Source: Rhodanobacteraceae bacterium (GTDB taxonomy: Bacteria > Pseudomonadota > Gammaproteobacteria > Xanthomonadales > Rhodanobacteraceae). Taken from it: a DNA stretch of 51,427 nucleotides. Below are positions 6,947-35,946 of this stretch, in pieces. Numbering within the stretch: position 1 is the stretch's first letter; every line of letters begins with the position of its first letter. A program made the translations under genes and the position numbers. The notes below the pieces were generated by a model that was not told the DNA's origin, did no database searches, and saw only the letters and a program-made list of their open reading frames with translations. The stretch lies in NCBI GenBank assembly GCA_035572335.1, contig DATNAW010000014.1, positions 1 through 51,427 on the forward strand, in the 5' to 3' direction.

Positions 6947-6999
6947 TCGGACGGATCGTGTGTCGCAAGCGCCGAGACGCCACGGCGTATGCTGATCGA

Positions 7000-8085: not shown

Positions 8086-8255
8086 CCCAAGTGGACAGCC
8101 GCAGCCGCAATCTGCCGGCCTGATAAGATCAATGCGGCCGCGCATTCGGCATCTGACGGGGTCGTGCGGTTGGGGTGTGAAGGAATTCCACCATTTCCGC
8201 ACGTCGATCGTCCAATCCGAAAGCGCGAAACGTTGTCCAGTACGACGGCATCCGT

Positions 8256-9290: not shown

Positions 9291-9306
9291 TCACGTCGCC
9301 TGCTCG

Positions 9307-10014: not shown

Positions 10015-10140
10015 GGAAAACCTCCCGTTCGCGTGGTCACTGCGCCTTGAGTGATCCGGAATGCATGCCCGCAACAACCGGACCGCCCGAGCGGTGAAGG
10101 CTAGGCGAAGCGCGAAGGGAAACAATCCTCCTAAAAGACC

Positions 10141-16380: not shown

Positions 16381-16455
16381 GTTGCACACTCCTTCGTCGG
16401 TCCGGCGGACCACGGCTCGGCACGGTGTGCGACAGCCGCGTGCGGCTAGTCGTCG

Positions 16456-18034: not shown

Positions 18035-20040
18035 GCGGCGATCCCGCGCACGGGCAAACGGTCGCGCGTCGTTTCCGCAAGCCACGCCTGGAACATCAAC
18101 ACGTCCCACAAGCGCGCGCCTTCGTCCGCGGCACCCGCAAGATGGCGCGTCCACAATTGCCGCACGTGGCCGGGTTCGAAATAGCCCTCCTCATGCAGCC
18201 GCCGCGCGTCCAGCAGTGCTTCCGCCCAGTCGCGCAGCGGCCCCCGCAGCCACGCGCCGATCGGCACCCCAAAGCCCTGCTTGGGGCGATCCATCAGCTG
18301 CCGCGGGACATGGCGATACAGCACTTCGCGCAGCAGCCACTTGCCCTGCCCGTTCCTGACCTTCTGTGCAAATGGCACGCGCCACGCGAATTCCACCACC
18401 CGGTGGTCGAGCAGCGGCACGCGCGCCTCGAGGCTCACCGCCATGCTGGCGCGATCGACCTTGGCCAGGATGTCGCCCGGAAGATACGTGACCAGATCAT
18501 CCAACATCATCCGTTCGATCACGCTGCGTGCGCTCAATGCGGACACGGGGTTGTCGAACCGCAGCGCAGGTTCGGTGGCGCGCAGCACCAGCTCCGCCGG
18601 ATGCCGGTGGTGCGACATCAGCACTTGGTAGCGTTCGCCCTGCGAGCCAGCCTGCAGCATGTCGGCGAGTACCCCGACCTTCGCTTGTGGACGCCTGAGT
18701 TTCAATCGCGCCGGCATGCCGCCGTTGATGGACGCCAGCAACGATTCATAGAATCCGCGGTGCAGCACGAGTGAACGCGCGGCTTGCCTGCGTGCGGCGG
18801 GCGGCAGCCAGTTGAAGCCGCGCTCGATGCTGCGCGCCGCGAAATAGCGGCGGTAACCGCCGAACAATTCGTCGCCGCCGTCGCCGGAGAGACCCACGGT
18901 GACGTTGCGGCGTGCCAGTTGCGCGACCAGGAAGGTCGGGATTTGCGAGGCGTCGGAAAACGGCTCGTCGAACATCCCGGGCAGCTTCGGCACCACGTCC
19001 AGCGCATCCTGCGCGGTGACATACAACTCGTGGTGATCGGTGTGCAGATGCTGCGCGACCGCGCTGGCGTGGGTCGCTTCGTCGTAACCCTTTTCGTTGA
19101 ACCCGATCGTGAACGTCTGCACCGGACGGCTGGACTGCGCCTGCATCAACGCGACCACCAGCGACGAGTCGATGCCGCCGGAAAGGAACGCGCCCAGCGG
19201 CACGTCCGCTTCCATCCGCAACGCCACCGCGTCGCGCAGCAGGCTTTCGAGTTCATCGGCGGCTTCGGCATCGGACAGGTGCAGGCGGTCGGCCATGCCC
19301 GCGGCCGCCGCGTCGCGTGCCGACCAGAACGGCTGCGTGTTTTGGGCGAGAACCGATTCGTCGGCCGCGGCTTTGGCAACGCTACCGGCATCGAGGGTGA
19401 GTATCGTGCCCGGTTCCAGCTTGCGCAGATCGCGATAAATGGTGTGCGGCGCCGCGATGTAATTGTGGCGCAGCAGCAGGCACAACGCGTCGCGATCGAT
19501 CGGGTTGTCGAAATCCGGCATCGCCGCGACGGCTTTGAGTTCCGACGCGAACACGAAACACCCACCGGCCGAGCCGAAGTACAGCGGCTTGATGCCGAGG
19601 CGGTCGCGCACCAGCGATAGCGTGCGTTTGCGGCGATCCCACAGCGCGAACGCGAACATCCCGATGAAATGTTGCAGGGCGCCGCGCAAGCCCCACCGTT
19701 CGATCGCGGCCAGCATCACCTCGGTGTCGGAATGTCCGCGGAACGTGGCGCCGGACTTCGCGAGTTCCTGCCGCAACGCGCGGTGGTTGTACACCTCGCC
19801 GTTGTAGTCGATCACGTAACGGCCGCTGGCCGAGACCATCGGCTGGCGGCCCTCGGGCGAAAGATCGATCACCGAAAGCCGGCGATGGCCCAGCGCAATA
19901 CCGGACGCGGCATCCTGGAAATAGCCCTCGTCGTCCGGTCCGCGATGGCGGATCGCGCGCGTCATGCGGCGCAGCGCCACCGCCGCGTACTCGGCGTCGA
20001 GGCGATGCGCAACATCCCAGAAGCCCGTTATCCCGCACAT
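18031..20040 (-). CDS. asnB: Asparagine synthase (glutamine-hydrolysing) family amidotransferase, polysaccharide-cluster type (WbpS-like role inferred)
   Basis: The true start must be ATG 20040, giving MCGITGFWD with the Ntn Cys2 nucleophile. PP-loop AFLSGGIDSSLVVALM. The ORF-track N-terminal extension is rejected. Confidence 0.85.
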   Translation of the reverse strand: MCGITGFWDVAHRLDAEYAAVALRRMTRAIRHRGPDDEGYFQDAASGIALGHRRLSVIDLSPEGRQPMVSASGRYVIDYNGEVYNHRALRQELAKSGATFRGHSDTEVMLAAIERWGLRGALQHFIGMFAFALWDRRKRTLSLVRDRLGIKPLYFGSAGGCFVFASELKAVAAMPDFDNPIDRDALCLLLRHNYIAAPHTIYRDLRKLEPGTILTLDAGSVAKAAADESVLAQNTQPFWSARDAAAAGMADRLHLSDAEAADELESLLRDAVALRMEADVPLGAFLSGGIDSSLVVALMQAQSSRPVQTFTIGFNEKGYDEATHASAVAQHLHTDHHELYVTAQDALDVVPKLPGMFDEPFSDASQIPTFLVAQLARRNVTVGLSGDGGDELFGGYRRYFAARSIERGFNWLPPAARRQAARSLVLHRGFYESLLASINGGMPARLKLRRPQAKVGVLADMLQAGSQGERYQVLMSHHRHPAELVLRATEPALRFDNPVSALSARSVIERMMLDDLVTYLPGDILAKVDRASMAVSLEARVPLLDHRVVEFAWRVPFAQKVRNGQGKWLLREVLYRHVPRQLMDRPKQGFGVPIGAWLRGPLRDWAEALLDARRLHEEGYFEPGHVRQLWTRHLAGAADEGARLWDVLMFQAWLAETTRDRLPVRGIAA

Positions 20041-20083
20041 GCCGGAAGTGTCCTGATCTGCACGCGTGATTGCGCCGACGTCT

Positions 20084-20938
20084 TCATTCGAGTGCGGCCA
20101 CGAGTTCGTGGATGTCCGATCCGGCGCCGATCCGCGCTTCGGCCAGGAAGCGCTTGCCCGAGCGCCGGAACACGCTGGACTGTTCGATCGATCCGCCATC
20201 GATGTTGCGGTTCTCGACCACCGCCAGCACCGCGCCGTCGCGCATCGCGTCGCGCAGGTTGCGCAGGCCCGCCTGCAGGGCGTCGTCCGTGAAGTAGCCG
20301 CGGTTCAGCAGGTTCGCGGCGATCACGAGGTCCGCCTTCTCGTGTTGCCACGCATCGAAGATGTTGTATTGCTCGATGCGGATGCGGTCGCCGCGCATCG
20401 CCGCGAGATCGGGGTTGATCATGTAGATGTCGCGTTCGTCGCGGGGCTTCGAGGCATCGAAGGTCTTGAACACGCGTTCCGCGATCACGTTGTAGGGCCA
20501 CTCCGCGCCGTCGAGGTCGTTCTGGATCACGAAGCAGCGGTTCGCGTACAGCCACGGCCTGGCATCCATGTCCGAGAGGAACATGCCTTTCTGGGTCGGG
20601 TATACGTGCGCCCTGATGTGGCGGTCGGTCACGTAGTAGCGCGTGAACCGCAATTGCTTCATCACCGCGAGCGACGTGCTGCCGTCGGAGGCGCCGACAT
20701 CCAGCACCACCGGCGGGGTCGCGAACGGCAATTCCGAAAGCAGGTGCGTGGTCTGCGGAAACCGGTCGTAGTCCGTGGTCTTGTAGGTGGTGCCGATCTT
20801 CAGCCGCTGCAGCGTCTCGGTGAGCACCGCAGCGTCGATGCCCCGATCCAGCAGGCGGCGCGGATCGGGAATGCCGCGGCGCAGTTTCTGCATGGCGGTT
20901 GGCCAGATGGCGCGATTGAGTCTTATCGGTCGGCGCAT
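20084..20938 (-). CDS. Putative SAM-dependent methyltransferase-like protein
   Basis: ATG 20938 has GAGGA 4 nt upstream and overlaps the upstream GT4 gene by 16 nt. Motif-I-like PPVVLDVGASDGSTSLAV, then YYVTD and VIAANLL. Family not recognised beyond the Rossmann-type MTase pattern. Confidence 0.5.
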   Translation of the reverse strand: MRRPIRLNRAIWPTAMQKLRRGIPDPRRLLDRGIDAAVLTETLQRLKIGTTYKTTDYDRFPQTTHLLSELPFATPPVVLDVGASDGSTSLAVMKQLRFTRYYVTDRHIRAHVYPTQKGMFLSDMDARPWLYANRCFVIQNDLDGAEWPYNVIAERVFKTFDASKPRDERDIYMINPDLAAMRGDRIRIEQYNIFDAWQHEKADLVIAANLLNRGYFTDDALQAGLRNLRDAMRDGAVLAVVENRNIDGGSIEQSSVFRRSGKRFLAEARIGAGSDIHELVAALE

Positions 20939-22062
20939 GGAATCCTCGTGACGGTTCGATACAGGTCGGCGTAACGGCGCGCGCCGGCGTCGAGGGCGTA
21001 TTGATCGACGACGCGCCGGCGTGCGCGCAGCCCCAGCGCGCGCCGGGCTTCCGTGTCGAGATCGGCCAGCCTGGCCCACGCCGCCGCGAGCGCGGCGGCA
21101 TCACGCGGCGGCACCACCACGCCGGTGTCGTCCACGATCGCGGGCGCATCGCCCACGTCGGTGACCACGCAGGGCACGCCGCACGCCATCGCTTCCGCGG
21201 TGGCGTTGGGAAACGCTTCGCCCCATGCAGAAGCGGAAGCGGCGATGTCGAGCGCGTTGTCGACGGCCGCGACGTCGGCGCGGCGGCCGCACAACCGCAC
21301 GCGGTCGCGCAGGCCGATCCCGTCGATCAGCGCAGCGAGTTCCGGGTTGTTGTCGTCAGCGCCTTCACCCACCAGCACGAACACCGAACGCGGATGGCTT
21401 GCGGAAAGCTCTTTTGCGGCGCGCAGGAAATTGGCGTGGTCCTTCATCGGATGCACGCGCGCGACCAATCCGATCGCGAGTGCATCGGGCGCGATGCCCA
21501 GTTCGGCGCGCACGCGCGCACGTTCGGCGGGCTGCGGCGCGAACGCGCGGGTATCGAAACCGTTCGGGATCACCACCGCGCGCTCGCCGTCGTAACCGAA
21601 GGCAACGTGCTGGGCGCGGCTGACCGCGGCATTGAAGATGATCCGTGCCGGCCGGTGCGATAGCCGGGCGCCCGCGCGGATCACCCAGCGCGTGCTGCGT
21701 TTCTCGTGTGCCAGTGCATGCAGGGAATGGCGGATGTTCCAGACCACCGGCACGCCATCGCCCCAGCCGGCCATCGCCGCCATCAGGTTGGCGTGGTACA
21801 TCCAGCTCTGCACCACGTCGTATCGGTTCTCGCGCAACATGCGCCGCAGTCGCCACACGTCGTGCGGCAACAGGCGTCCGGCGTGCATGCCGAGATGATG
21901 CAACTCCGCGGATTCGGCGATCGACGCACTCATCGAGCCTTCCGCGCCCAGCGCGATCACCACGTGCTCGAAGTCGGGCGCTCGCAGCGTCTGCACCAGC
22001 CGGTGCAGCGCAGCCTGCGCGCCGCCGGTGCCGAGTCCGGTGATGATGTGGCAGATCTTCAT
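20923..22062 (-). CDS. GT4-family glycosyltransferase
   Basis: N-terminus MKICHIITGLGTGGAQAALHRL. C-terminal WGEAFPNATAEAMACGVPCVVTDVGD (EX7E region). Paralogous to the gene at 23320-24537. Confidence 0.85.
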   Translation of the reverse strand: MKICHIITGLGTGGAQAALHRLVQTLRAPDFEHVVIALGAEGSMSASIAESAELHHLGMHAGRLLPHDVWRLRRMLRENRYDVVQSWMYHANLMAAMAGWGDGVPVVWNIRHSLHALAHEKRSTRWVIRAGARLSHRPARIIFNAAVSRAQHVAFGYDGERAVVIPNGFDTRAFAPQPAERARVRAELGIAPDALAIGLVARVHPMKDHANFLRAAKELSASHPRSVFVLVGEGADDNNPELAALIDGIGLRDRVRLCGRRADVAAVDNALDIAASASAWGEAFPNATAEAMACGVPCVVTDVGDAPAIVDDTGVVVPPRDAAALAAAWARLADLDTEARRALGLRARRRVVDQYALDAGARRYADLYRTVTRIPCADR

Positions 22063-22099
22063 GCGAAGGGATTCCGGTATGGCATCGTCACGGGTGCCC

Positions 22100-23320
22100 T
22101 CAGGCGGCCGGATAGGGGTCGTGATGCATGGGTCCGTCCTCGCCCAGCGGATGCGCGGTGACGACGAGGTAACGGCGCTTCCGCCGGAACCGGCTGCGCA
22201 GCAGCGCGAGCACGCCGATGTACTGGAACACCACGATCAGCCCGTCGATCTGCACGCGATGGCGCGGCCCCTGCAGCGTCGGGAACATGCCATACAGCAG
22301 CGTCATCATCAGGAAATAAATGACCATGAAGCGCAGCGTCATCGTCTTCCTTCGCCACGCCGCGACCATGCCGTAGAACTGGAACGGCAGCATCACCCAG
22401 AAGAACAGCTGCGGCAGGTCGAGGAACGCGTAATTGGGTTGCGTGTGGAACGGAATGGGCGTGGCGATGAAACGCACGACGCCGGTCAGCGGATCGCCTA
22501 GGCGCGAACGGAATTCGTGCATGGCGCCGCCGATGCTGCCGTGGCCGAGGCCATGCACCACGACCACGAGCGCGGCGACCGCCGCCAACCACATCCACGG
22601 ATTGCGGCGGCCGCGGCGCGAGCACAGCACCATGATTCCGAATGCCGCGCCCAGCATCAGCGGCACGTAGAAACGCGTGACCGCCAGCACCAGCCCGCAG
22701 ATCACCGCGATCACCGCCGCGCGCTTGAAGCGGCCGGCTTCGACCAGCGCGACGGCGTACACCACGCCCGCGGTGCCGGTGGCGACCAGGATGTCCTTCA
22801 GGTTGGCCACGGTGGACCACGCCAGCACCGAAGGACTCAACGCCAGGAACACGAACAACCCGATGCCGCTGCGGCGGCCCATGCCGAACGCGAGACGACC
22901 GGCCTTCGCCAGCACGCCGGCCCCGATGAAGGTGAGCAGGATGTTGGCCGCGACGGGCGCGAAATAACCCGATCCGAAAACGGCGAGTGCGGAGGCGTTG
23001 TAGACGTAATAGAAAAGGTTCGCGCTCTTCACCATGCTGCGCACGTAGTCGTAGTTGTCCGTGATGTTGAAGACGCTCACGCCGCTCTGCAGCAGTTGCT
23101 TGCCGAAGCGCAGGTAATTCCAGTCGTCGAAAAACGTGTACGTGCCGTCGAACACGAATCCGAAATAGAACAGGAACAATCCCGACTTCAACGCGGCAAC
23201 GGCAAGGCTGAGGCCGGCCCTGCGCGTGAACCACAGCGACAGCAGGAATCCCACCAGCATGATCGCGATGGCGGGCCAGATCAGTTGGCCGATCGGGAAG
23301 GGATGCAGGCCCGTGCCCAT
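22100..23320 (-). CDS. Polytopic inner-membrane protein, candidate Wzy-type polymerase (assigned by context)
   Basis: ATG 23320 shares its A with the upstream TGA (TGATG). About 10 hydrophobic segments, for example LIWPAIAIMLVGFLLSLWF, GLFVFLALSPSVLAWSTV and FFWVMLPFQFYGMVAAW. It lies between glycosyltransferases, and no other polymerase candidate exists in the locus. Confidence 0.5.
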   Translation of the reverse strand: MGTGLHPFPIGQLIWPAIAIMLVGFLLSLWFTRRAGLSLAVAALKSGLFLFYFGFVFDGTYTFFDDWNYLRFGKQLLQSGVSVFNITDNYDYVRSMVKSANLFYYVYNASALAVFGSGYFAPVAANILLTFIGAGVLAKAGRLAFGMGRRSGIGLFVFLALSPSVLAWSTVANLKDILVATGTAGVVYAVALVEAGRFKRAAVIAVICGLVLAVTRFYVPLMLGAAFGIMVLCSRRGRRNPWMWLAAVAALVVVVHGLGHGSIGGAMHEFRSRLGDPLTGVVRFIATPIPFHTQPNYAFLDLPQLFFWVMLPFQFYGMVAAWRRKTMTLRFMVIYFLMMTLLYGMFPTLQGPRHRVQIDGLIVVFQYIGVLALLRSRFRRKRRYLVVTAHPLGEDGPMHHDPYPAA

Positions 23321-24537
23321 CACGTGTACCTGCGGGTTGCGCACACGCCGTCGAGCGCGGCTTTCGAGTTGGCGAGCAGCGCATCCAGTGAATACGCGTC
23401 CACGATGCGTTTGCGCGCGGCTGCATGCATTGCGTTTGCGGCTTCCGCGTTCGCCAGCGACGGCAGCATGTTTTCGATGGCGGCAGCGAAGCCTTCCGGG
23501 TCGCGCGGGGCGACCACAGTGCCGCAATCGCCCACGATGCGCGCGCAATCGCCCACGTCGGTCACCACGCACGGGCGACCGCAGGCCATCGCTTCGGCAA
23601 CCACGTTGGGGAAGCTTTCGCCATAGGAGGTCGATGCGAGCACGTCCAGCGCGCTGTACACCGCGGGCATGTCGCCGCGCGGACCGGCCCAGATCAAACG
23701 ATCGGCCAGGCCGAGTTCATCCGCCTGCGCGTGCAGCGTGGCGGCGTATTCCGCTTTGCCTTCACCGACGCAGACGAAACGCCAGCGTGGATCGTGCGCT
23801 GCGAGCCGCGCGGTGGCGGCAAGGAACGTGGGATGGTCCTTCATCGGGTCGAGCCGGCCGATCAGCCCGACCAGCAGCCCGTCGTCCGGCACGTGCCATT
23901 CGCCGCGCACGCGTGCGCGCGCGTCGGCATCGAAACGGAAACGCTGCGTATCGATGCCGTTCGGAATCGCCCGCATGCGGTCGCGCGGATAACCCAGCGC
24001 CGCGTGATGCGCCGCGCCGGCATCGGAATTCACGATGACGAGATCCGCGAGTCGGGCGCACAGGCAACTCAGGCGGAAGGTCAGGCGCGCCATCCGGTCA
24101 TAACGCGCGCGATCCATGTACGCGGAGCGCACGCCCCAGACGACGCGCGTGTGGCGATGCGCAAGCTTCGCCAGCAAGGCCAGCAAATTGCCGACGGTGA
24201 GATAGCCGTGCACGACATCGGCATCGTGGGTGCGCAACGTGCGCCACAACCGCCACAGGAACCCCGCGACGTCCCAGCGACCACGCTTGCGCAGGTCGAT
24301 CACCGGTACGCCCGCCTGCACGAGTTCACGCTGGAAGACGTCGCCGCCATAGAAACACGCGACCGCGACATCCCAACCGGCGCGGTGCAACGCCGTCGCC
24401 AGCGCCACCAGTTGCCGCTGCGCGCCGCCGCGCCCGAACGAACGGATCAGGAACAGGACGCGCAAGGACCCGCCGCGATGCGTGGCCGCGTCGCGCAGGT
24501 TCGCCATCACCGCGCCGGATTCGGAGGCAGGCATCAT
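23320..24537 (-). CDS. GT4-family glycosyltransferase
   Basis: LRVLFLIRSFGRGGAQRQLV at the N-terminus and YGESFPNVVAEAMACGRPCVVTDVGD at the C-terminus. ATG 24537 gives an ATGA overlap with the upstream stop; ATG 24507 (MANLRD) is an alternative. Confidence 0.85.
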   Translation of the reverse strand: MMPASESGAVMANLRDAATHRGGSLRVLFLIRSFGRGGAQRQLVALATALHRAGWDVAVACFYGGDVFQRELVQAGVPVIDLRKRGRWDVAGFLWRLWRTLRTHDADVVHGYLTVGNLLALLAKLAHRHTRVVWGVRSAYMDRARYDRMARLTFRLSCLCARLADLVIVNSDAGAAHHAALGYPRDRMRAIPNGIDTQRFRFDADARARVRGEWHVPDDGLLVGLIGRLDPMKDHPTFLAATARLAAHDPRWRFVCVGEGKAEYAATLHAQADELGLADRLIWAGPRGDMPAVYSALDVLASTSYGESFPNVVAEAMACGRPCVVTDVGDCARIVGDCGTVVAPRDPEGFAAAIENMLPSLANAEAANAMHAAARKRIVDAYSLDALLANSKAALDGVCATRRYT

Positions 24538-25676
24538 GCTTGCTCCGCGGCCGCCTGCGCGCGCTCCGCGTCCGGCGCCGCCACCGAAGCCAGCAGCCTG
24601 TCCCACTGGCGGAGGATCTCGCTGACCGAATAGAGGTTGCACACCTCGCGCGCGTGCGTGCCGAGGCGGGCGCGCAACACGTCATCCTGCATCAAGGTGT
24701 CGAGCGCCATGGCCAGCCCGTCCACGTCTTCGGCGGGAACCAGCCAGCCGTTCTCGCCGTGCGTGATCAGTTCGCGCGGACCGGCCGTGCAATCGAAGCT
24801 CACGCAGGCCACGCCTTCGGCCATCGCTTCCAGCAGCGCATTGGGCAGGCCCTCGAAGCGCGACGACAGCACGAACAGGTCGGCGCGCCGCATCGCCTGC
24901 CTCACCTGCGGGCTGAAACCCGGCAGCGCGATGCGCGTCGTGAGTCCATGCATGGCGATGGATTGCGTCAACGGTTCGCGCAAGGGGCCTTCGCCGAGGA
25001 TTTCCAGCTTCCAACCGGGATGTCGCTTCGCGACGCGCGCGAACGCATCGATCAGCAGGTCGAAACCCTTCGCCGGAACGAGCCGTCCGACGGCCAGCAA
25101 AGTGCGGACGCGCCCGTCCCCGGCCGGAGCCGGCTCGGGCCTCGCGTTGTCGGCGCCGGGCGCGACCGGATTGGCGATCACCTGCACCGCGCGCCCCACC
25201 CGCGCTTCCAGCTCATCGGCGCAGCGCCGCGTCTGCGCCACCACCGCCGCGGCGCGCCGATACAAGACGCGGCGCAACAGTGTCCAGACCAGGCGCGAGG
25301 GTTCGGCGCCGATGAACTGGCGTTCCGTGACGATGACCGGCACGCGCAAACCCGTGGCGGCGATCATCGCCAGCGCGTTGGTGTTGGCCACGAAGCTGAT
25401 GACGGCGTCCGGGCGCGCCGCCTTGATGGCACGCCGCAGCGCGCGCACGCGCACGACGTTGCGGCCGAGTGCCTGCGCCGGATTCGACGAGCGCCGCGCC
25501 ACGTCCAGCGCCACGCGCCAGACCCTGCGGTCCAGCGGATAGCGATCGTTCACCGCCGAGCTCAGCGTGATCAGCGTGACCTCGACGCCGCGCATGGCCC
25601 ACGCATTCGCCAGCGTCGCCATCACGCGCTCGGCGCCGCCGCCGCCGAGCGACGGCACGATCAGCACCAGTTTCAT
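24534..25676 (-). CDS. GT4-family glycosyltransferase
   Basis: MKLVLIVPSLGGGGAERVMATLAN at the N-terminus and RFEGLPNALLEAMAEGVACVSFDC at the C-terminus. ATG 25676 is preferred; ATG 25727 is an alternative. Confidence 0.85.
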   Translation of the reverse strand: MKLVLIVPSLGGGGAERVMATLANAWAMRGVEVTLITLSSAVNDRYPLDRRVWRVALDVARRSSNPAQALGRNVVRVRALRRAIKAARPDAVISFVANTNALAMIAATGLRVPVIVTERQFIGAEPSRLVWTLLRRVLYRRAAAVVAQTRRCADELEARVGRAVQVIANPVAPGADNARPEPAPAGDGRVRTLLAVGRLVPAKGFDLLIDAFARVAKRHPGWKLEILGEGPLREPLTQSIAMHGLTTRIALPGFSPQVRQAMRRADLFVLSSRFEGLPNALLEAMAEGVACVSFDCTAGPRELITHGENGWLVPAEDVDGLAMALDTLMQDDVLRARLGTHAREVCNLYSVSEILRQWDRLLASVAAPDAERAQAAAEQA

Positions 25677-25791
25677 GGCGTCCCGGCCGTCCTGGCCGGA
25701 AACGGAAAGCGCAGGCATCGCGATCATGACGGCTGTCCGTATGACGGCTTCATGCGGAAGCGGAGGTCCTGGTTGCCAGCCCGGAAATTTT

Positions 25792-26733
25792 TCATGCTGT
25801 CATCCTTCCTTGTGGTGCGACGGGTTCGCTTCCGTGCAGCCAGGCATGCAGGTCCCGGCCGGTGAGTTTTTCGAGCAGGTGGACATCCGGCGTGAAATAA
25901 GCGCGCAATTCGTCCAGCAATGCCGGTGCGATGGCCTGTTGCTGGACCGGCGCGAAGTTGGCCTTGCGCAAGGTTTTCAGCACGCCAAGCCGTTCGATGC
26001 CCGCGCGCTGCTTGACGTACATCGCGGCGCGCAAGAGCGGTTTGGGCGTCTTCTGCGTGAATTGCGCGAGCGTCTGCGAACGTGCGCGCGTGCGCCCGTT
26101 CACGCGTGGAAACTCGTTGCGTCCGTCGTAGGCAACACCGAGGAACGCCAACACCTCGCGGTAAACGCGCGCAGGGTTCGCGGCGAAGTCGTCGTAGAAC
26201 CACCAGCCAAGTTGCGCCTTCGGCACCAGGTCCAGCAGACGCTGCAGTTGCGCGCCGAGCAGCGCCATGCGGTCGTACAGCAGGATCTTGGCGTCCCGGC
26301 ATTGCGCCGGCACGCGGCGGCCGGAGCGGCGTTCCGCGCACAGCTGCCACGCCGCGGCGAAGTCGATGACGGTTTCGTCGCGCGTCCGCAGCGACTGCGC
26401 ATGCATGGACATCGCGAGGTCGACCGGATTGCGCAACATCACCAGCAGCCGCGCCGACGGCAGCCGCTTGCGGATTTCGGCAACCGCCGCGTCGGAATAC
26501 ATGTAGAAGATCGAGGCTTCGCCGATCGCGATATGCTCGCGCCCGGCGCCGGTGAACAACGCCTGGTAATCGTCCCAGTCCGACACGTAACGATGCGACG
26601 GCATGTCGAGCGCGAAATAGTGCGGTTCCTTCGGCTTGCTCATGAACACGCGCGGATGCGTGCGCAGGAATTCCGCCAGTGCGGTGGTGCCGCATTTCGG
26701 TGCCCCCACCAGGATGAAATTCGGCGCGGTCAT
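25792..26733 (-). CDS. PAPS-dependent sulfotransferase (copy 1 of a tandem pair)
   Basis: 5-prime-PSB motif NFILVGAPKCGTTAL and 3-prime-PB-like LLVMLRNPVDLAMSMH. ATG 26733 forms an ATGA overlap with the stop of copy 2. Confidence 0.8.
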   Translation of the reverse strand: MTAPNFILVGAPKCGTTALAEFLRTHPRVFMSKPKEPHYFALDMPSHRYVSDWDDYQALFTGAGREHIAIGEASIFYMYSDAAVAEIRKRLPSARLLVMLRNPVDLAMSMHAQSLRTRDETVIDFAAAWQLCAERRSGRRVPAQCRDAKILLYDRMALLGAQLQRLLDLVPKAQLGWWFYDDFAANPARVYREVLAFLGVAYDGRNEFPRVNGRTRARSQTLAQFTQKTPKPLLRAAMYVKQRAGIERLGVLKTLRKANFAPVQQQAIAPALLDELRAYFTPDVHLLEKLTGRDLHAWLHGSEPVAPQGRMTA

Positions 26734-27704
26734 GGTTTGGACGAAAGCGGCAACACGGTGGGATCGACATCGACACGCGGGCGGACGAACGCCAACCCGG
26801 AATTCCCGAGCCAATGCGCCAGATCGCGGCCGGTGATCGCTTCGAGCAGATGGATGTCCGGCGCGAAATGTGTCCGCATGTCGCGCAGCAGGCCGGAAGG
26901 AATATCCGGCGGCCGCGACGGCACGAAGCTGGCCTCCCGCAAGGCGTTCAAAACGCCAAGCCGCCGGATGCCCATCCGCTTCTTGGCGTACATCGCCAGG
27001 CGCACGACGGATTTTGGCGGCCTTTGCACGAGCGAAGCCAGCGTTTGCGAACGTGCCTGCGTGCGCGCGTTCACGACCGGGAATTCGCTGCGCCCGTCAT
27101 GCGGAAGATCGAGGAACGACAAGGCCTCGCGGTAAACCTTTGCGGGATCGGCGGAGAAATCCTCGAGGAACCACCACCGCACCTGCGACTTCGGAAAAAC
27201 ATCCAGCACACGCTGCAATTGCAATCCCAGCAGCGCGGCCTCATCGTAGAGCAGGGTCTTGCACTCGCGGCAGCGCGCCGGAATCTCGTTGCCGGCGCGG
27301 CGCTCTGCGCACAGCGCCCACGCTTGTGCGAAATCCGCGACGTCTTCGTCGCAATCGTGCAGCCGTTGGCCGTGCAGCGAGACCACCAGATCCAGCGGAT
27401 TGCGCAGCATCACCAGCAGGCGCGCGGAAGGAAAGCGCCGATGCAGTTCGGGCACGGCGACTTCCGAATGCATGTAGATGGTGGAACCTTCGCCGACCGC
27501 CCGATAGGTTTCGTCGGCGTCGCGGAACAGCGCTTCGTACTCGCTCCAATGCTTCGCGACGCGAATGGCCGGAAAGTCCAGCGCGAAAAACGCGGGCTCC
27601 TTCGGAACGCACATGAACACATCCGGATGCGCGCCCAGGTAGACGCTCAGCGCGGTCGTGCCGCACTTCGGTGCTCCGACGATGAAGAAATTCGGCAGCA
27701 TCAT
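26730..27704 (-). CDS. PAPS-dependent sulfotransferase (copy 2 of a tandem pair)
   Basis: NFFIVGAPKCGTTAL and LLVMLRNPLDLVVSLH. Colinear similarity to copy 1 runs along the whole length. ATG 27704 (MMLPNF) forms an ATGA overlap with the flippase stop. The 709-aa ORF-track extension is read-through over the flippase gene in another frame. Confidence 0.8.
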   Translation of the reverse strand: MMLPNFFIVGAPKCGTTALSVYLGAHPDVFMCVPKEPAFFALDFPAIRVAKHWSEYEALFRDADETYRAVGEGSTIYMHSEVAVPELHRRFPSARLLVMLRNPLDLVVSLHGQRLHDCDEDVADFAQAWALCAERRAGNEIPARCRECKTLLYDEAALLGLQLQRVLDVFPKSQVRWWFLEDFSADPAKVYREALSFLDLPHDGRSEFPVVNARTQARSQTLASLVQRPPKSVVRLAMYAKKRMGIRRLGVLNALREASFVPSRPPDIPSGLLRDMRTHFAPDIHLLEAITGRDLAHWLGNSGLAFVRPRVDVDPTVLPLSSKP

Positions 27705-29065
27705 CGTTTGCTCGGGAGAGGCAAGATGGTCGGGTTCACGTGCAACCGCGTGCGGACGAACGTCAGGCCGGTTACGTTCCATGCCACGGCTCCGAGCGCG
27801 GTCGCGATCGCGGCGCCGATCAACCCGAATATCGGAATCAGCGCGACGCTGAACACCACGTTCAACGCGGCCGCCAATGCCATGAACCACGAAGCCTGGC
27901 GTTCGTAGCGTGTCATCGTCATCAGGAAGCCGGTGGGTCCGGTCATCGCGGCGACGCACTGGCCGGCCAGGATGATGAGCAGCGGAATGTAGGCAGCTTC
28001 CGCGAAGCCCTTGCCGAACAATTGCAGCGCCCAGTACCCGGCGATCGCGATCGCCAGCGCGACGGCGGCGGTGACCACGAACGTCAGCTTGGCTGCGTGG
28101 TGCACCAGCCTCGCCATGGTGGCGTGGTCTTCGGCCGCGTAGCTTTCCGCGATCATCGGCGCGAGGATCGTGTTGACCGCGGTGAGGCCGTACGCCGCGA
28201 TCGCCGCCAGCCGCACCGCCGCGTAATAGGGACCGACCACTTTCGCACCGGCGAGCGCACCGAGGATCAGGACGTCCACGCGGTTCGAAACGATCCCGAT
28301 CGCCGCCAGCAGGAACAACTGCCGCCCCAGCTTGAACCAGGCGCGCGGTTCGTAGCGTGGCCTGACGTGTTTCGCCGCGGCCGGCCACGCCCGCGACAGA
28401 TGCCACTCCGAACAGGCCACCGCGGCCAGCGCCGCGACCACGTTGGCCAGCATGATGCCCGGCGCGTCCAGCCGCAGGCCCAGCGGCAACGCGAGCACCA
28501 GCACCAGCACGATCAGGAACGCCGGCCGCACCAGGCTGTTGTACGCGCCGGAACTGATCGCCCGCTTGTAGCCGCGGAAAAATCCGCCGTTCAATCCGAG
28601 CTGCGTCAGCAGCGGCAGCAGCAGGAACGCCGCCAGCATCGTTTTCAGCGTGGCGCTGTCCATCCTGTCGCGCAGCGCGAACACCACCACGCCGCCGACC
28701 AGCATCACCGCGATGCTGCCCGCCAGCACCATTGCGCTGGTGCCGCGGCGCAATCCGCGCAGCGTGCCCCAATCCCTGCGGTGAAGATAGACCGGCACCA
28801 GGCGCACCACGCTGCTGCTTTGTCCCAGCAGCGACAGTACGCCCAGCACGCTGACCCATGACATCGCGTAGGCGTAGATGCCGTACTGCGATTTGCCGAC
28901 CAGCCGCGCCAGCAGCACGTTGACGATCAGGGCGAATGCCGCGCCGCCCACCTGCACCAGCAGTGCGCCGGAAGCGCCGCGGCGGAGCAGGCGCGTGGCC
29001 GCGGCGAAATCCGCGTGGGGCCGTTCCGGTCGCGCTGCCACAGCGTCGGTCGCTTCAACCGACAT
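27701..29065 (-). CDS. wzx: Wzx-type oligosaccharide flippase (MOP superfamily polysaccharide biosynthesis protein)
   Basis: 454 aa and hydrophobic throughout, with about 12 or more TM segments. The N-terminal RRGASGALLVQVGGAAFALIVNVLLARLVGKSQYGIYAY is typical of Wzx/RfbX-like proteins. It sits next to wzc. Confidence 0.75.
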   Translation of the reverse strand: MSVEATDAVAARPERPHADFAAATRLLRRGASGALLVQVGGAAFALIVNVLLARLVGKSQYGIYAYAMSWVSVLGVLSLLGQSSSVVRLVPVYLHRRDWGTLRGLRRGTSAMVLAGSIAVMLVGGVVVFALRDRMDSATLKTMLAAFLLLPLLTQLGLNGGFFRGYKRAISSGAYNSLVRPAFLIVLVLVLALPLGLRLDAPGIMLANVVAALAAVACSEWHLSRAWPAAAKHVRPRYEPRAWFKLGRQLFLLAAIGIVSNRVDVLILGALAGAKVVGPYYAAVRLAAIAAYGLTAVNTILAPMIAESYAAEDHATMARLVHHAAKLTFVVTAAVALAIAIAGYWALQLFGKGFAEAAYIPLLIILAGQCVAAMTGPTGFLMTMTRYERQASWFMALAAALNVVFSVALIPIFGLIGAAIATALGAVAWNVTGLTFVRTRLHVNPTILPLPSKR

Positions 29066-29113
29066 CGTCCTGCTTCCCCGGTGGCGCAGGTTCCGCGGTG
29101 GTCGCGATGCGCG

Positions 29114-31375
29114 TCATTGCACGTATCCGTCACCCTGGTAACCGTAGGCGTTGAAGCCGCCGCTGCGCCGTTCCATGCCGTTGAACACGACGCCCTTGAT
29201 CTCGACGCCGCTCTGGCGGAAGCGCTGCATCGCCATTTCGACTTCGCGCGACTGGTTGAGGCCGAAGCGCACCACCAGCAGGCTGGTACCGACGTGGTGG
29301 CCGATGATCGTCGCGTCGGTCACCGAAAGGATCGGCGGCGAGTCGATGACGATCAGGTCGTATTGCGGCGACAGCTTGTCCAGCAGCGACGCGAAGCGCG
29401 GCCGCATCAGCAGTTCGGACGGATTGGACGGCCGCCTGCCGGCGGGGATGAAGTGCAGGTTGTCGACGTCCTCGACCAGGCGGATCGCTTCCTCGAGGAT
29501 GATCCGGTCGGCGAGCAGTTCGGAAAGGCCGTGCTCCGCGCGGCCGCCGAGGATGGTGTGCAGCTTGCCGTCGCGCATGTTGGCGTCGATCAGCAGGACC
29601 CGCTGTCCGGCCTGCGCGTTGATCGCCGCGAGGTTGGCGGACACGAACGTCTTGCCGGCGTTCGGGCTGGAACCGCAGATCATGATGCGGTTGTCGTCGG
29701 CGTCGGGCGCGGTGAAGTACAGGCTGGTGCGCAGGCTGCGCAGGGCTTCGGCCGCGATGTCTTCGGGCGCCGCCAACGCCAGCAGGCGTTGCCGGCGGCG
29801 CGAGAACAGGCGCGGGCCGCTTTGCGACAATGCGAGTTGCTGCTCGCTCAACGGGATCGCGGTGTAAACCGGCAGGCCGAGCTGCTCGATTTCCGCCGGG
29901 TCCTCCACGCCGCGCTTCATGAACTGGCGCAGGAACACGAACGCCAGCGCCAGCACGCCGCCGGCCACGGTGCTGCCTGCCACCGTGATCAGTTTCTTCG
30001 GCTTGGCGGGACTGGTGATGTCGACGTTCGGCTGGTCCACGATGCGTGCGGTGCCGACCGCGCCGGCCTGCGAGATCTCCAGTTGCTGTTCTTCGTTCAA
30101 CAAGCCGTTGTAGGTGGTGTCCAGCACCTGCACGTTGCCGTTCAGCCGCAACAGTTCGCGCTGGGTGTCGGGCAGCGTGTTCATCTGGCTTTGCATCGCA
30201 CTCTTGCGCGAACGCAGCATCGCGATCTGGTTGACGATGGCCTTGTAGGCCGGGTGCTCCGGCGTGTACAGGCGCGCCGCCTCCAGCTTCTGCGTCTCGA
30301 GTTGGCGCAGGCTGTCATCGACGCTGTTCAATTCCGTCAGCAGGCTCTGCGTCTGCATCGGCACGTCCACCGAGTGCGCCTTGATCTGGTAGGCGTTGAG
30401 CGCGGCCTGGGCCTGTTCCAGGCGTTGCTTCACCACCGGCAGTTGCTTCTGCACGAACTTCAGGCTGTTGGCGGATTGCGCGGAATTGCGGCCCACGTTC
30501 TGCGCCAGGAAAGCCTGGGTGATGTAATCGAGGATCTGCACGGTCAGATGCGGGTTGGTGCCATCGAGCGTCAGCGCGATCACGTTGGAACCTTGCTGCG
30601 CCGGCTGGGCATTGATCGACGCCTGCAGTCCGGCAATGGTGGTCGCCTCGTTGTTGCGGGTGACGCTGAAGTGCGTGCCCGGATTGGCATCCAGTTTCGC
30701 GACGCGCATGGTGATGCCGTCATGCTTCACCGTCTGGCCGACCTGTCCCTGCAACAGCACGCTGCCATCGAAGAAGGGAAGCAGGCCATCCTTGCGCAAG
30801 GTGTACGAGCCGTCCTTGCCCGCGACCAGCGTCAGCTCCTGTCCGAGCAGGCTGTTGGGCACGTCGAGTTGCGGGACATCGAGGTGCGAGCCGCCCCAGT
30901 CGTAACGCCCGAATCCCGGCCATGCGCTGGCGACGTCGCCCGGCTTGGCCGGCGTGTAGAACTGCGCGGCGAGCTCACCTATCAGCGGCACCCGGTAAGG
31001 CGCAACCACGATGTTGAGGTTGAGCGCGTCGACCGCCTTCTTCACCACCGAATACGACGTGAGGATCGATACCGCGTCGGTGGATTCGGGATTGGATGCG
31101 CCCACCGCCTGTTCGACCGCGGTAATGCCGGGCAGCGTCGGAGCCTGTTCGACCTGCAACAGGGCGGAGGCCTCGTAGACCGGACGCGCGAGGAATACAT
31201 AGACGAGTCCCAGCACGAAGAAGATCGCGGTCACCGTGATGATGAGCCGCTTGTGGTCGATCAGCGTGCCGAGTAGTGCGCGCAGGTCGATTTCCTCGCC
31301 GGCCTGCTCGATCGGCAGCGCCCGCGCGTCGATGAACGCGCTTCGGGAATATTCAAGTCGTTGTGTGGGCGTCAT
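29114..31375 (-). CDS. wzc: Polysaccharide co-polymerase/BY-kinase (Wzc/GumC-like tyrosine autokinase), first gene of the minus-strand operon
   Basis: ATG 31375 has GGAGG 6 nt upstream. N-terminal Wzz-like region with 2 TM segments. Walker A GSSPNAGKTFVSANLA, Walker A-prime VLLIDANMRDG, Walker B DLIVIDSPP. Short C-terminal Tyr cluster NAYGYQGDGYVQ. Confidence 0.9.
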   Translation of the reverse strand: MTPTQRLEYSRSAFIDARALPIEQAGEEIDLRALLGTLIDHKRLIITVTAIFFVLGLVYVFLARPVYEASALLQVEQAPTLPGITAVEQAVGASNPESTDAVSILTSYSVVKKAVDALNLNIVVAPYRVPLIGELAAQFYTPAKPGDVASAWPGFGRYDWGGSHLDVPQLDVPNSLLGQELTLVAGKDGSYTLRKDGLLPFFDGSVLLQGQVGQTVKHDGITMRVAKLDANPGTHFSVTRNNEATTIAGLQASINAQPAQQGSNVIALTLDGTNPHLTVQILDYITQAFLAQNVGRNSAQSANSLKFVQKQLPVVKQRLEQAQAALNAYQIKAHSVDVPMQTQSLLTELNSVDDSLRQLETQKLEAARLYTPEHPAYKAIVNQIAMLRSRKSAMQSQMNTLPDTQRELLRLNGNVQVLDTTYNGLLNEEQQLEISQAGAVGTARIVDQPNVDITSPAKPKKLITVAGSTVAGGVLALAFVFLRQFMKRGVEDPAEIEQLGLPVYTAIPLSEQQLALSQSGPRLFSRRRQRLLALAAPEDIAAEALRSLRTSLYFTAPDADDNRIMICGSSPNAGKTFVSANLAAINAQAGQRVLLIDANMRDGKLHTILGGRAEHGLSELLADRIILEEAIRLVEDVDNLHFIPAGRRPSNPSELLMRPRFASLLDKLSPQYDLIVIDSPPILSVTDATIIGHHVGTSLLVVRFGLNQSREVEMAMQRFRQSGVEIKGVVFNGMERRSGGFNAYGYQGDGYVQ

Positions 31376-32109
31376 GGGATACCTCCAGGTTCGCCCGGGT
31401 CGTGCAAAGGAAATACCGGATGCGCATCAGGGGCCGCGGACGGACGGTGCAGGCGAGAGGACGTCTGCGTTCGGGCGTGTTCCGGGCATGCGCTTGCGAT
31501 TTCATCCTTGGCGTCGCTCCGTGTGGCAATGCGGCCGCTGTCCACTGACACCTGTGCAGCGGCCGGTGTCTTTCGAGTGATTCGCCGCATCGCGGCGATT
31601 CGCGTGCGTCGACACGTGGTGCATGCCGTGTCGCGGACGTGTTCGAATCAAGGATTCTTGCAACGATGTGCTGAACGAAACCAGCACAAATAAAGCACGC
31701 TTTCCGAATGTTTATGCGTTCATGAAATAGACAGCCATATAAACGTGCAGAAAATGCAAGCCCATACAAAAACTTGTCGGCCGCATTCCCGCGGCATCAC
31801 GTTTCAATGACAAAAATAAATGACATTTCATTCAGCGAATTGCGCTGGACACGCCTGGATCGGCATGGCCTACTGCGGAGCACATCGTGGCGGGATGCAG
31901 TGCATTCGACCGCGATTCCGCGCGTTTTACGCTGCGCGCGATGACGTTGGTGGCGTGGCACGCCCGGCATCGCCGTTCATCGTGGCAAGCACCTCGTCGA
32001 ACGGCGGACGGCAGGTTGCCGGTGCGTCGCGCGTCATGTACCGGGTTCGAGCGTGTGCTCCGGCAACCCGCGCGGCACATGCATTTTCCTCATCTGCAAG
32101 GACATGGCC
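31376..32109. promoter_or_regulatory. Divergent promoter/leader region between wzc and wza, with an AT-rich core
   Basis: A 734-bp non-coding gap between divergent genes. The core at 31680-31850 is much lower in GC than its surroundings and contains a direct repeat AATGACA (31806-31812 and 31819-31825). ORFs called here are short with implausible composition. Confidence 0.45.
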
Positions 32110-33273
32110 ATGGAACGTTTGCAGCGGACCCTGAATGGAACGGATTCCGGCGCGCATGCTGCGCGCCGAATGGATGCATTGCGCAGGGCAAATGCCCTGC
32201 GCTGCGTTTTCGCGATCATCGCGTGTGCGGCGATGGCGGGCTGCGTGCCCGGCCAGAACGCTTCGCTCAATGTCCGCGCCGCCAACAACAATCCCGATTA
32301 CGTGCACCTGGTGCCGATCACGCCGCAGGTGATCGCCGCGCAAAAAGCCGCGAATCCGCCCGCGGAAGTTCCTTCCGCACTGCTCGATTATCAGCCGCAG
32401 GGATACCAGATCGGTCCCGGCGACACGCTGTACATCACGGTGTGGAATCATCCGGAGCTGACCTCGCCGGCAGGCAACCAGCAGGAGGCGGCCGCCAATG
32501 GACGCGTGGTGCAACCGGATGGTTCGATCTACTATCCCTTCGCGGGCAAGGTGCAGGCGGCGGGCAAGACCATCGAGCAACTGCGCCAGGATCTGGCCCA
32601 CAAGCTCGCCACCTATCTCAAGAATCCGCAGGTGGATGTCAGCGTCATCAACTACGGCAGCCAGCGCGTATCGCTGGAGGGCGCATTCACCAACACCGGG
32701 CCGCAGCCGATCCTCGGCGTGCCGCTGACGCTGGGCGAAGCGATGGGCAAGGCGGTGGTGGACGATCCCAACGCCAACCTTTCGGACGTGACGTTGACGC
32801 GCGATGGGCTGGTCTACCACCTCGACATCGACCAGCTCCAACACGAGGGCCTCGCCAAGACCATTTACCTGAAGGGCGGCGACCGCATCTTCCTGCCGTA
32901 CAACAGCCACCAGAAGGCGTTCGTGATGGGCGAAGTGAATCGTCCGCTCGCCGTCCGCTTCAGTTCGGCCGACATCAGTTTGTCGGAGGCGATCGGTGCC
33001 GCCGGCGGGCTGAACCAGGTCACCTCGGAGGGCAAGATCTACGTCATCCGCAACACCACGCAGAACGGCGATTACAAGGCCACGGTTTACGAACTGGATG
33101 CGAAGTCGGTGGTCGCGTTCGCGCTGGGCAGCCAGTTCGAGGTGAAACCCGGCGACACGGTGTTCGCTTCGGCTGCGCCCATCACGCGCTGGAATCGTTT
33201 CCTGACGCAGCTGCTGCCACTGACCAGCGCGCTCAGTTCGACCGCCGCGGCCCAGTACTACATCCAGCGTTGA
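32110..33273 (+). CDS. wza: Wza-like outer-membrane polysaccharide export lipoprotein
   Basis: Poly_export motif YQIGPGDTLYITVWNHPELT, SLBB-like repeats, and lipobox AAMAGC in RCVFAIIACAAMAGCVPG. ATG 32110 has AAGGA 7 nt upstream. ATG 32170 (MDALRR...) and the GTG at 32053 in the ORF track are alternatives. Confidence 0.85.
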   Translation: MERLQRTLNGTDSGAHAARRMDALRRANALRCVFAIIACAAMAGCVPGQNASLNVRAANNNPDYVHLVPITPQVIAAQKAANPPAEVPSALLDYQPQGYQIGPGDTLYITVWNHPELTSPAGNQQEAAANGRVVQPDGSIYYPFAGKVQAAGKTIEQLRQDLAHKLATYLKNPQVDVSVINYGSQRVSLEGAFTNTGPQPILGVPLTLGEAMGKAVVDDPNANLSDVTLTRDGLVYHLDIDQLQHEGLAKTIYLKGGDRIFLPYNSHQKAFVMGEVNRPLAVRFSSADISLSEAIGAAGGLNQVTSEGKIYVIRNTTQNGDYKATVYELDAKSVVAFALGSQFEVKPGDTVFASAAPITRWNRFLTQLLPLTSALSSTAAAQYYIQR

Positions 33274-35796: not shown

Positions 35797-35946
35797 GGAG
35801 TGATCCCCGGGACAAAGGAACGCAGCGTAGCCACACGCGATTCGCACGCGCAAGCGCCGAAAGTCCCGAGCACCGCGCGCCGATCGCGTGGCGCCACGCG
35901 CGCGCCGGCGCTACCCTGCCGGCATTCCCCGCCGCCGGAGCCTGCC

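Follow-up and report, generated by a model that had tools for sequence, protein, structure and literature searches.

A pair of adjacent sulfotransferase genes, here called ST-A and ST-B, lies within an exopolysaccharide (EPS) operon of the Rhodanobacteraceae bacterium assembly GCA_035572335.1 (contig DATNAW010000014.1, positions 1 to 51,427; the whole stretch of 51,427 nucleotides (nt) that was analyzed is referred to as the window). The two genes are proposed, with a probability of about 0.65, to encode two cytoplasmic carbohydrate sulfotransferases which use 3'-phosphoadenosine 5'-phosphosulfate (PAPS), derive from one tandem-duplicated ancestor, and sulfate two sites, or two acceptors, of a lipid-linked repeat unit before it is flipped. 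The observations that carry this proposal are the paralogy of the two genes, their fold, the conservation of their motifs, the synteny of the cluster, a duplication scar, and the purifying selection acting on both copies.

A tandem pair of paralogous genes

A sequence-only reading of this DNA had described two genes which carry both a GAPKCGTT and a LLVMLRNPxDLxxS motif, align colinearly over their whole length, and are joined to each other and to the flippase gene wzx by ATGA overlaps. All of these elements are found again in the present analysis (coordinates are collected in Table 1). Both translations open directly with the P-loop strand, MMLPNFFIVGAPKCGTT in ST-A and MTAPNFILVGAPKCGTT in ST-B, and GAPKCGTT occupies residues 10-17 in each; the 3'-phosphate-binding (PB) motif, LLVMLRNP(L/V)DL(VV/AM)S, reads LLVMLRNPLDLVVS in ST-A and LLVMLRNPVDLAMS in ST-B. 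The stretches that had been quoted as colinear, FPVVNARTQARSQTLASLVQRPPKSVV for ST-A and FPRVNGRTRARSQTLAQFTQKTPKPLL for ST-B, are both present. When the two proteins are compared by BLASTP, 175 of 302 residues are identical (58%), with zero gaps and E = 6e-134: such a gapless similarity is far beyond chance. The ATGA overlaps are located at 27701-27704, between wzx and ST-A, and at 26730-26733, between ST-A and ST-B.

The start of ST-B was assigned by reference to an alignment of 46 family sequences, the same set used for the profile search and for the AlphaFold2 model reported below. In this alignment M1 is nearly invariant, while P4 and F6 are invariant. The TTG at 26814, given as the start in a mechanical list of open reading frames (ORFs), was rejected, because the ATG at 26733 is the one that matches the family N-terminus. 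The tandem arrangement is not an artefact of assembly, since an independent soil-metagenome contig of 2957 bp spans both genes, covering positions 24867-27823 with 8 differences.

Family, fold and predicted catalytic residues

Pfam profiles, which might have placed the two proteins in some other family, put both inside the sulfotransferases, in each case with two matches above the gathering score: PF13469 (Sulfotransfer_3, 48.9 bits) and PF00685 (Sulfotransfer_1, 33.4 bits) for ST-A; PF00685 (42 bits) and PF13469 (41.2 bits) for ST-B. The best match in a sequence search of PDB is for both the same full-length hit, 3RNL (3rnl_A), with E = 1.5e-30 for ST-A and 2e-36 for ST-B; the profile built on the 46 sequences finds it with E = 4.4e-53 over residues 2-300. 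Next in the list come the heparan-sulfate (HS) enzymes 3-OST-3, 3-OST-5 and 3-OST-1, and the sulfotransferase domain of NDST1.

The AlphaFold2 model of ST-A features a mean predicted local distance difference test score (pLDDT) of 90.3 and a predicted template modelling score (pTM) of 0.85, residues 1-302 being confident. When compared to PDB by Foldseek, the model matches 3RNL (5.5e-17), then NDST1 and 3-OST structures with either PAPS or 3'-phosphoadenosine 5'-phosphate (PAP) bound (2e-9 to 1e-8); tyrosylprotein and other sulfotransferases rank below the HS enzymes. Among the matches listed, 50 out of 50 are sulfotransferases. Pfam, the sequence and profile matches in PDB, and the fold search thus agree on the PAPS-type sulfotransferase identity that had been proposed from the motifs.

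The residues expected in the active site are well conserved. In the 5'-phosphosulfate-binding (PSB) loop, G10, G15, T16 and T17 are invariant among the 46 sequences, and K13 is conserved in at least 90% of them; the loops of ST-A and ST-B align with those of 3-OST-3 and NDST1, K13 corresponding to the K of the GTRAL loop. Within the cores of the PB motif, LRNPLDLVVS in ST-A and LRNPVDLAMS in ST-B, R101 is invariant and S109 is conserved in at least 90% of the alignment; this pair aligns with the R and S of RDPVTRAIS in 3-OST-3. In the ST-A model, a strand at residues 95-100 is followed by a helix at residues 103-116, the PB helix, which carries Ser109. E72, found within GEGS in ST-A and GEAS in ST-B, is also conserved in at least 90% of the sequences, and aligns with the Glu of EKTP in 3-OST-3 and of FEKS in NDST1, the catalytic base of these enzymes (PMC11625862). 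K13, E72 (as putative base), R101 and S109 are accordingly the predicted set of catalytic and PAPS-contacting residues in both proteins. The sulfotransferase fold is defined by a Lys in the PSB loop, a Ser in the PB helix, a beta-sheet core, and a His or Glu base (PMC11625862): all of these features are present in ST-A and ST-B.

Neither protein contains a hydrophobic segment or a signal peptide (over stretches of 19 residues, the Kyte-Doolittle score does not exceed 1.16), the P-loop already begins at residue 10, and PAPS is a cytoplasmic metabolite: both enzymes are therefore predicted to be soluble and cytoplasmic.

The family is a large one. In an exhaustive search of sequences clustered at 50% identity, 2,065 clusters reach E <= 1e-30 and as many as 9,407 reach E <= 1e-10; a word-indexed search retrieves 1,955 proteins with E <= 1e-10. 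Homologs at 44-51% identity include sequences labelled as cyanobacteria, Nitrococcus and Dissulfuribacterales, and those members that come from metagenome-assembled genomes (MAGs) are already labelled "sulfotransferase" by NCBI. NCBIfam has no specific equivalog for ST-A or ST-B, and returns only a sub-threshold match to the P-loop of NoeE. One protein of the representative library, P0134 (573 aa), contains two separate stretches matching the query, and may be a natural two-domain sulfotransferase fusion.

A duplication scar derived from wzx

The origin of the pair can be read from the sequences that precede each copy. About 70 nt located 5' of the ST-B start, corresponding to the 3' tail of ST-A, are homologous to about 70 nt located 5' of the ST-A start, corresponding to the 3' end of wzx. 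The encoded tail of ST-A (...FVRPRVDVDPTVLPLSSKP) matches the C-terminus of Wzx (...FVRTRLHVNPTILPLPSKR), with E values of 1e-8 to 1e-9 against several Wzx orthologs. These residues, 303-324, have a pLDDT below 50, and are the sole low-confidence part of the model.

The scar is more complete in other members of a group of ten related contigs, indicated as L001-L010. In four of them (L002-L005), ST-A is 303-304 aa long, ends at its own stop codon, and is followed by a separate relic ORF of 49-50 codons, which copies the last transmembrane helix and the tail of Wzx (match E down to 1e-16). The relic is found at 7037-7189 in L002 and at 8912-9061 in L005, where it reads MRLALIPSSLVGGGAALASAAGIVVWNLCGAVFVRSRLDANPTVLPLSR, to be compared with ...FSVALIPIFGLMGAALATALGSVAWNVSGLTFVRSRLHVNPTVLPLPSK at the Wzx C-terminus. 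In L002 it overlaps the stop or start codons of both neighbours, in L005 only the stop of ST-A. It diverges much faster than the flanking genes and its reading frame is still open, as if it were retained only as a translational relay.

As an alternative source of the relic, a second full-length wzx, such as the one present in L008, was considered and rejected: the match to wzx2 has E = 0.009, or is absent. The alignments instead identify the C-terminus of the cluster's own wzx as the source, and indicate that the pair arose by tandem duplication in place. From the relic, together with the upstream homology, it follows that the duplicated unit comprised the ST gene, the ATGA junction before it and some 150 nt from the 3' end of wzx. 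In the lineage that includes the window and L001, about 85 nt have been deleted, among them the ST-A stop codon and the first part of the relic, so that the remaining 22 relic codons became fused to ST-A as a disordered tail. The single-copy arrangement found in some relatives is expected to represent either the state before the duplication, or the outcome of ST-A loss by recombination between the repeats.

Related clusters and divergence of the two copies

The tandem pair is found, with full synteny, in five contigs: L001 and L005, which are NCBI assemblies labelled Rhodanobacteraceae, and L002-L004, which are metagenome contigs with no label. Single-copy clusters, organized as wzx-ST-GT4, are found in L006, L007 and L010. 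A single-ST variant is present in L008 and L009 (Xanthomonadales MAG contigs, 5299-10342), where an APH-like gene (PF01636) lies between wzc and wzx, and a second wzx-like gene (Polysacc_synt, full length), which shares only 43% identity with the first, comes after the ST. A scan of the GTDB representative genomes returned only one locus, L001; the source genome, or its close relatives, must therefore be scarce among GTDB representatives.

The pair had been regarded as unusual for a Xanthomonadales-like soil bacterium. This view is to be moderated, since five related contigs share the pair, a Xanthomonadales MAG has the single-copy version, and the enzyme family is very large. Literature searches for a sulfotransferase or a sulfated EPS in Rhodanobacter or Xanthomonadales returned nothing relevant.

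Both copies appear to be maintained. Pairwise ratios of nonsynonymous to synonymous substitution rates (dN/dS) range from 0.14 to 0.23 among ST-A orthologs and from 0.15 to 0.27 among ST-B and single-copy orthologs; these values are comparable to those of wzx (0.15-0.20), and both copies are therefore taken to be functional and under purifying selection. Between the paralogs, dN is 0.28-0.35 and dS is 0.74-1.09. In a neighbour-joining tree of 74 homologs, the ST-A clade is sister to a clade including the ST-B orthologs and the single-copy genes: such a topology fits either an older duplication with later loss of ST-A, or a faster evolution of ST-A.

At 34 sites, different residues are fixed in the ST-A and ST-B clades. 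Single-copy homologs agree with ST-B at 27 of these and with ST-A at 5; for more distant homologs, the corresponding figures are 17 and 9. Both groups side with ST-B, which makes ST-A the more derived of the two copies. Residues 104-118, which lie on the PB helix or immediately behind it, account for ten of the 34 sites; by analogy with the HS sulfotransferases, this segment may contact the acceptor.

These data bear on the possibility that the duplicates are redundant, both sulfating the same position of the same sugar, with the duplication serving to raise capacity. Tandem duplications do frequently start as dosage variants, and the catalytic motifs and core length are indeed the same in ST-A and ST-B. 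Redundant copies, however, are normally lost or homogenised, while the present ones are only 58% identical, with a dN of about 0.28-0.35, and purifying selection has preserved each of them in 4 or more diverged lineages. The clade-fixed sites, moreover, are clustered near the PB helix, and recombination between the wzx 3' end and the relic would easily delete ST-A, which is kept nonetheless. A mere effect of dosage is thus considered unlikely.

Operon context and probable translational coupling

The pair had been placed inside an EPS operon, and the genes around it agree with this: they form a Wzx/Wzy-dependent cluster of a group 1-like type, in which Wzx, Wzc with its kinase domain, Wza, an initiating transferase and four GT4 genes are all recognized by Pfam (Table 1). 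The candidate Wzy-like polymerase shows a weak match to PMT_2, below cutoff; its position is kept in all related clusters. The AsnB-like protein could, by analogy, amidate a sugar carboxylate.

Table 1. Location of the sulfotransferase pair and of the surrounding polysaccharide genes in the window
Feature	Position	Strand	Description
ST-A, upstream sulfotransferase paralog	26730..27704	minus	324 aa; ATG at 27704, stop 26732-26730; catalytic core residues 1-302
ST-B, downstream sulfotransferase paralog	25792..26733	minus	313 aa; ATG at 26733, stop 25794-25792
ST-A C-terminal tail, wzx relic	26733..26800	minus	about residues 303-324, GLAFVRPRVDVDPTVLPLSSKP; fused in frame
wzc, co-polymerase with tyrosine-kinase domain	29114..31375	minus	first operon gene; Pfam Wzz, WZC_N, GNVR, AAA_31
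wzx, flippase	27701..29065	minus	454 aa; Pfam PF01943 Polysacc_synt 1.5e-20; last ~50 codons are the relic source
mini-ORF	25724..25795	minus	23 codons, MKNFRAGNQDLRFRMKPSYGQPS; bridges ST-B and GT4a, ATGA overlap at both ends
GT4a, glycosyltransferase	24534..25727	minus	397 aa; Pfam Glycos_transf_1 1.1e-38, Glyco_transf_4
GT4b, glycosyltransferase	23320..24537	minus	Pfam; start overlaps GT4a stop, junction GCATGATG; L002 ortholog 404 aa
Wzy-like polymerase candidate	22100..23320	minus	406-aa multi-pass membrane protein; position and hydrophobic sequence only
GT4c, glycosyltransferase	20923..22062	minus	Pfam
Methyltransferase-like gene (weak)	20084-20938	minus	
AsnB-like glutamine amidotransferase	18031..20043	minus	Pfam Asn_synthase 3.5e-123, GATase_7; orthologs 670 aa
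302-aa protein	17126-18034	minus	no Pfam match; ATG overlaps asnB stop; L006 gene in same position
S-adenosylmethionine (SAM) methyltransferase	about 16456-17136	minus	
379-aa ORF	15274-16413	minus	no Pfam match; hydrophobic N-terminal stretch, possibly signal peptide
GT4d, glycosyltransferase	14083..15240	minus	distal cluster end; Pfam
wza, outer-membrane polysaccharide export	32053..33273	plus	divergent from operon; Pfam Poly_export, SLBB_2, Wza_C
WecA/MraY-family initiating sugar-phosphate transferase	12947..14086	plus	PF00953 Glycos_transf_4 6.5e-32; convergent with operon far end

The position of the pair also argues against an acceptor other than the EPS repeat unit. The acceptor could in principle be the lipopolysaccharide (LPS) core or lipid A, the tyrosine of a secreted peptide or protein, or a small molecule, with the location in the operon being accidental: acceptor specificity is unreadable from the sequence, tyrosylprotein sulfotransferases (TPSTs) are among the weaker PDB matches, and Xanthomonas has a tyrosine sulfotransferase, RaxST. 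The TPST matches, however, span only a 28-residue P-loop region (E about 2e-4), and TPSTs fall below all carbohydrate sulfotransferases in the fold search. In 10 of the 10 related contigs, furthermore, the ST is found between wzx and GT4 genes, with overlapping codons. An acceptor outside the EPS pathway is thus quite improbable.

ATGA stop/start overlaps occur at five successive junctions: wzx/ST-A, ST-A/ST-B, ST-B/mini-ORF, mini-ORF/GT4a and GT4a/GT4b. Single-copy relatives already feature the wzx-ATGA-ST-ATGA-GT4 arrangement. No Shine-Dalgarno-like AGGAGG is found, by direct reading, within 15 nt 5' of either the ST-A or the ST-B start, and the overlaps, in its absence, fit a termination-reinitiation type of coupling. 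Terminator-like sites in the operon are not above those in shuffled sequence (11 found, 14.4 expected), promoter-like sites are no commoner than in shuffled sequence, and Rfam, at gathering thresholds, gives no match; tRNA genes are also absent. No regulatory RNA or internal terminator can therefore be attached to the ST pair. From this organization, ST-A and ST-B are probably both co-transcribed and, again probably, translationally coupled with wzx and the downstream glycosyltransferases.

The least probable of the alternatives considered is an obligate hetero-oligomer, in which one subunit is mainly structural or regulatory and the two together provide a single sulfation activity: ATGA overlaps do favour the equimolar co-synthesis typical of complex subunits, and P0134 shows two stretches matching the query within its 573 aa, but K13, E72, R101 and S109 are all retained in both copies, single-copy orthologs evidently work alone, and ATGA coupling, as it also links unrelated enzymes of the operon, is not specific to a complex.

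At the position of the mini-ORF, L001 and L002 have ORFs of 25 and 56 codons, respectively, which are poorly conserved in sequence: only an initial MK... is shared and, for L002, a terminal ...GQPS. The mini-ORF is absent in L005, L006 and L010, where the ST stop overlaps the GT4 start directly. A Shine-Dalgarno-like run, AGGAAGGA, is located upstream of it. The mini-ORF is probably a relay for translational coupling; alternatively, it could encode a small protein.

Traces of expression are found in two rhizosphere runs (X8, X10), whose library description is "metatranscriptomic". Contigs with at least 95% identity cover parts of the region 22000-31500, including the wzx/ST-A junction (27498-27746), the ST-A/ST-B junction (26625-27005), and the 3' end of ST-B with part of the mini-ORF (25736-25990). 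These contigs suggest transcription of the operon in the rhizosphere, but only weakly, and are too shallow to prove co-transcription.

Outside the operon, the cluster is flanked by genes of the S9 prolyl-oligopeptidase family, at 10141-12210 and 33331-35853 (both on the minus strand). The one beside wza keeps its position in L005 and L008, so that this cluster boundary appears stable across relatives. About 5 kb from wza, at 38818-40550 (plus strand), a LytS-type histidine kinase (PF06580) and a LytTR response regulator form a pair which is a candidate regulator. The region 3740-8085 contains a TPR protein with a C-terminal 2OG-Fe(II) oxygenase-5 domain, a standalone 2OG-Fe(II)_Oxy_5 protein, a GDSL lipase and a radical-SAM protein; this group could be a small modification cassette, and is unrelated to the sulfotransferase pair.

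Comparison with known systems

The nearest precedent for the function is found in Synechocystis sp. PCC 6803, whose synechan (xss) cluster, also a Wzx/Wzy-dependent EPS cluster, contains two sulfotransferase genes, for XssA and XssE; synechan has a sulfate:sugar ratio of 2:8, and its model involves cytoplasmic sulfation of a lipid-linked repeat unit before flipping, with two sulfates per repeat (PMC8205485). The likeness between the enzymes themselves is partial. XssA, encoded on pSYSM, has its PSB loop, Glu and PB motif in common with ST-A and ST-B, but its similarity to ST-A is limited to residues 4-124 (33% identity, E = 9e-16), with nothing alignable beyond; XssE can barely be aligned (E = 1e-6, 23% identity, 40 gaps in 190 residues). 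Neither of the two is therefore an ortholog of ST-A or ST-B. Moreover, XssA and XssE belong to different subfamilies and their genes are non-adjacent, while ST-A and ST-B are tandem paralogs. The hosts also differ, a cyanobacterium in one case and a soil gammaproteobacterium in the other, where no regulator of the XssQRS type is found beside the cluster.

Among proteins of known structure, 3RNL, from Alicyclobacillus acidocaldarius, is a full-length homolog featuring the same motifs and a Foldseek template modelling (TM) score of 0.84 on the target, at an identity of only 27%. Its PDB listing, under the bare name "Sulfotransferase", gives no acceptor or function, and is thus silent on specificity. 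The HS enzymes 3-OST-1, 3-OST-3 and 3-OST-5 and the NDST1 domain share with ST-A and ST-B the fold, the Lys of the PSB loop, the Glu base and the Arg and Ser of the PB motif, and act on carbohydrate acceptors. Their identity, however, is 16-21%, with a TM score on the query (TMq) of 0.53-0.60; the sequence match ends at about residue 120-204, and the acceptor-binding parts are not conserved in ST-A and ST-B. A likeness of mechanism is thus supported, membership in the same narrow family is not. The cellular setting is different as well: the animal HS enzymes are Golgi-lumenal and act on the finished polymer, while ST-A and ST-B are predicted to be cytoplasmic, with a lipid-linked oligosaccharide as presumed acceptor.

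In rhizobia, PAPS-dependent sulfation of glycolipids and polysaccharides is carried out by NodH, NoeE, LpsS and KpsS (PMC11625862). On the NoeE model, ST-A and ST-B score 14.7-15 bits, against a cutoff of 500. NodH has a PSB motif of the RXG type (PMC11625862), to be compared with PKCG in ST-A and ST-B. S. meliloti pSymB (L012, CP140934.1, positions 899899-916702) has a polysaccharide-type cluster in which three separate genes are annotated as sulfotransferases; one of the encoded proteins aligns with ST-A over its entire length at about 30% identity. Sulfated capsules have also been reported in marine Vibrio and Cobetia, with the sulfotransferases encoded in the clusters (PMC11641403; PMC11766843); in view of these descriptions, a statement of 2021 that reserved sulfated polysaccharides to cyanobacteria no longer holds.

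Proposed function

In the two-site pathway proposed here, the WecA-like enzyme and the four GT4 transferases would build the repeat unit on undecaprenyl phosphate, at the cytoplasmic face of the membrane, and the amidotransferase and methyltransferases would decorate it. On the same face, each ST would take a sulfate from PAPS and place it on one of the sugars of the repeat unit, which is linked to undecaprenyl diphosphate. Glu72 would act as general base, Lys13 would serve in the loop that binds the 5'-phosphosulfate, and Arg101 and Ser109 in the motif that binds the 3'-phosphate: the predicted arrangement is that of the HS 3-O- and N-sulfotransferases. ST-B would keep the ancestral site specificity of the single-copy clusters, while ST-A, the derived copy, would have gained a second site or a second acceptor sugar. 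The sulfated unit would then be flipped by Wzx, polymerised by the Wzy-like protein, and exported by Wzc and Wza. With two ST specificities, the EPS would carry two sulfates per repeat. Such a scheme fits the long co-retention of both copies under purifying selection, their asymmetric divergence, and the absence of signal peptides and transmembrane segments. The use of PAPS, the acceptor, the distinct regiospecificities and an actual coupling of translation are what it adds to the observed data.

Several points weigh against this proposal. None of cysD, cysN, cysC and cysQ is present among the window ORFs scanned, so that the supply of PAPS must be assumed to be encoded elsewhere in the genome. 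The case for distinct regiospecificity is made from divergence and co-retention only, and the nearest structure, 3RNL, carries just a generic name. In Synechocystis, deletion of xssE leaves EPS amount and bloom formation unchanged (PMC8205485), which means that a second sulfotransferase can lack a phenotype. Finally, in the rhizosphere contigs depth is about 3 over the ST genes and about 11 over wzc, values to be read with caution, since DNA may be present in these runs and contig depth is a poor measure.

Significance

PAPS-dependent polysaccharide sulfotransferases within Wzx/Wzy clusters are of an already known kind; with so large an enzyme family, and with comparable clusters on record, the prediction of a two-site sulfation is sound yet unsurprising. 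What is new is that the duplication occurred in place and left a readable scar, that a clade of Rhodanobacteraceae has kept the pair, that relatives with a single copy exist, and that the two copies have diverged asymmetrically. Bacterial sulfotransferases acting on polysaccharide sugars are little known, and few of them have been characterised (PMC11625862; PMC11641403).

A sulfated EPS is predicted from this locus for a soil lineage from which no such polymer has been reported. A more specific proposal is that a soil and rhizosphere clade of Rhodanobacteraceae makes a doubly sulfated, glycosaminoglycan-like EPS, the second sulfate being added by a recently neofunctionalised ST-A; this is put forward tentatively, its chances being rated at somewhat less than even. 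If true, such an EPS would be, to our knowledge, the first sulfated one described from a terrestrial, non-cyanobacterial bacterium, and the single-copy and tandem clusters would represent a natural before-and-after system for the evolution of regiospecificity in polysaccharide sulfotransferases. With a matched pair of enzymes and their single-copy relatives available, the 34 clade-fixed differences could be tied to regiospecificity, a knowledge useful for the engineering of sulfated polysaccharides. It would also shed light on the means by which soil bacteria adjust their matrix charge, as for metal binding, hydration, and resistance to phages or predators.

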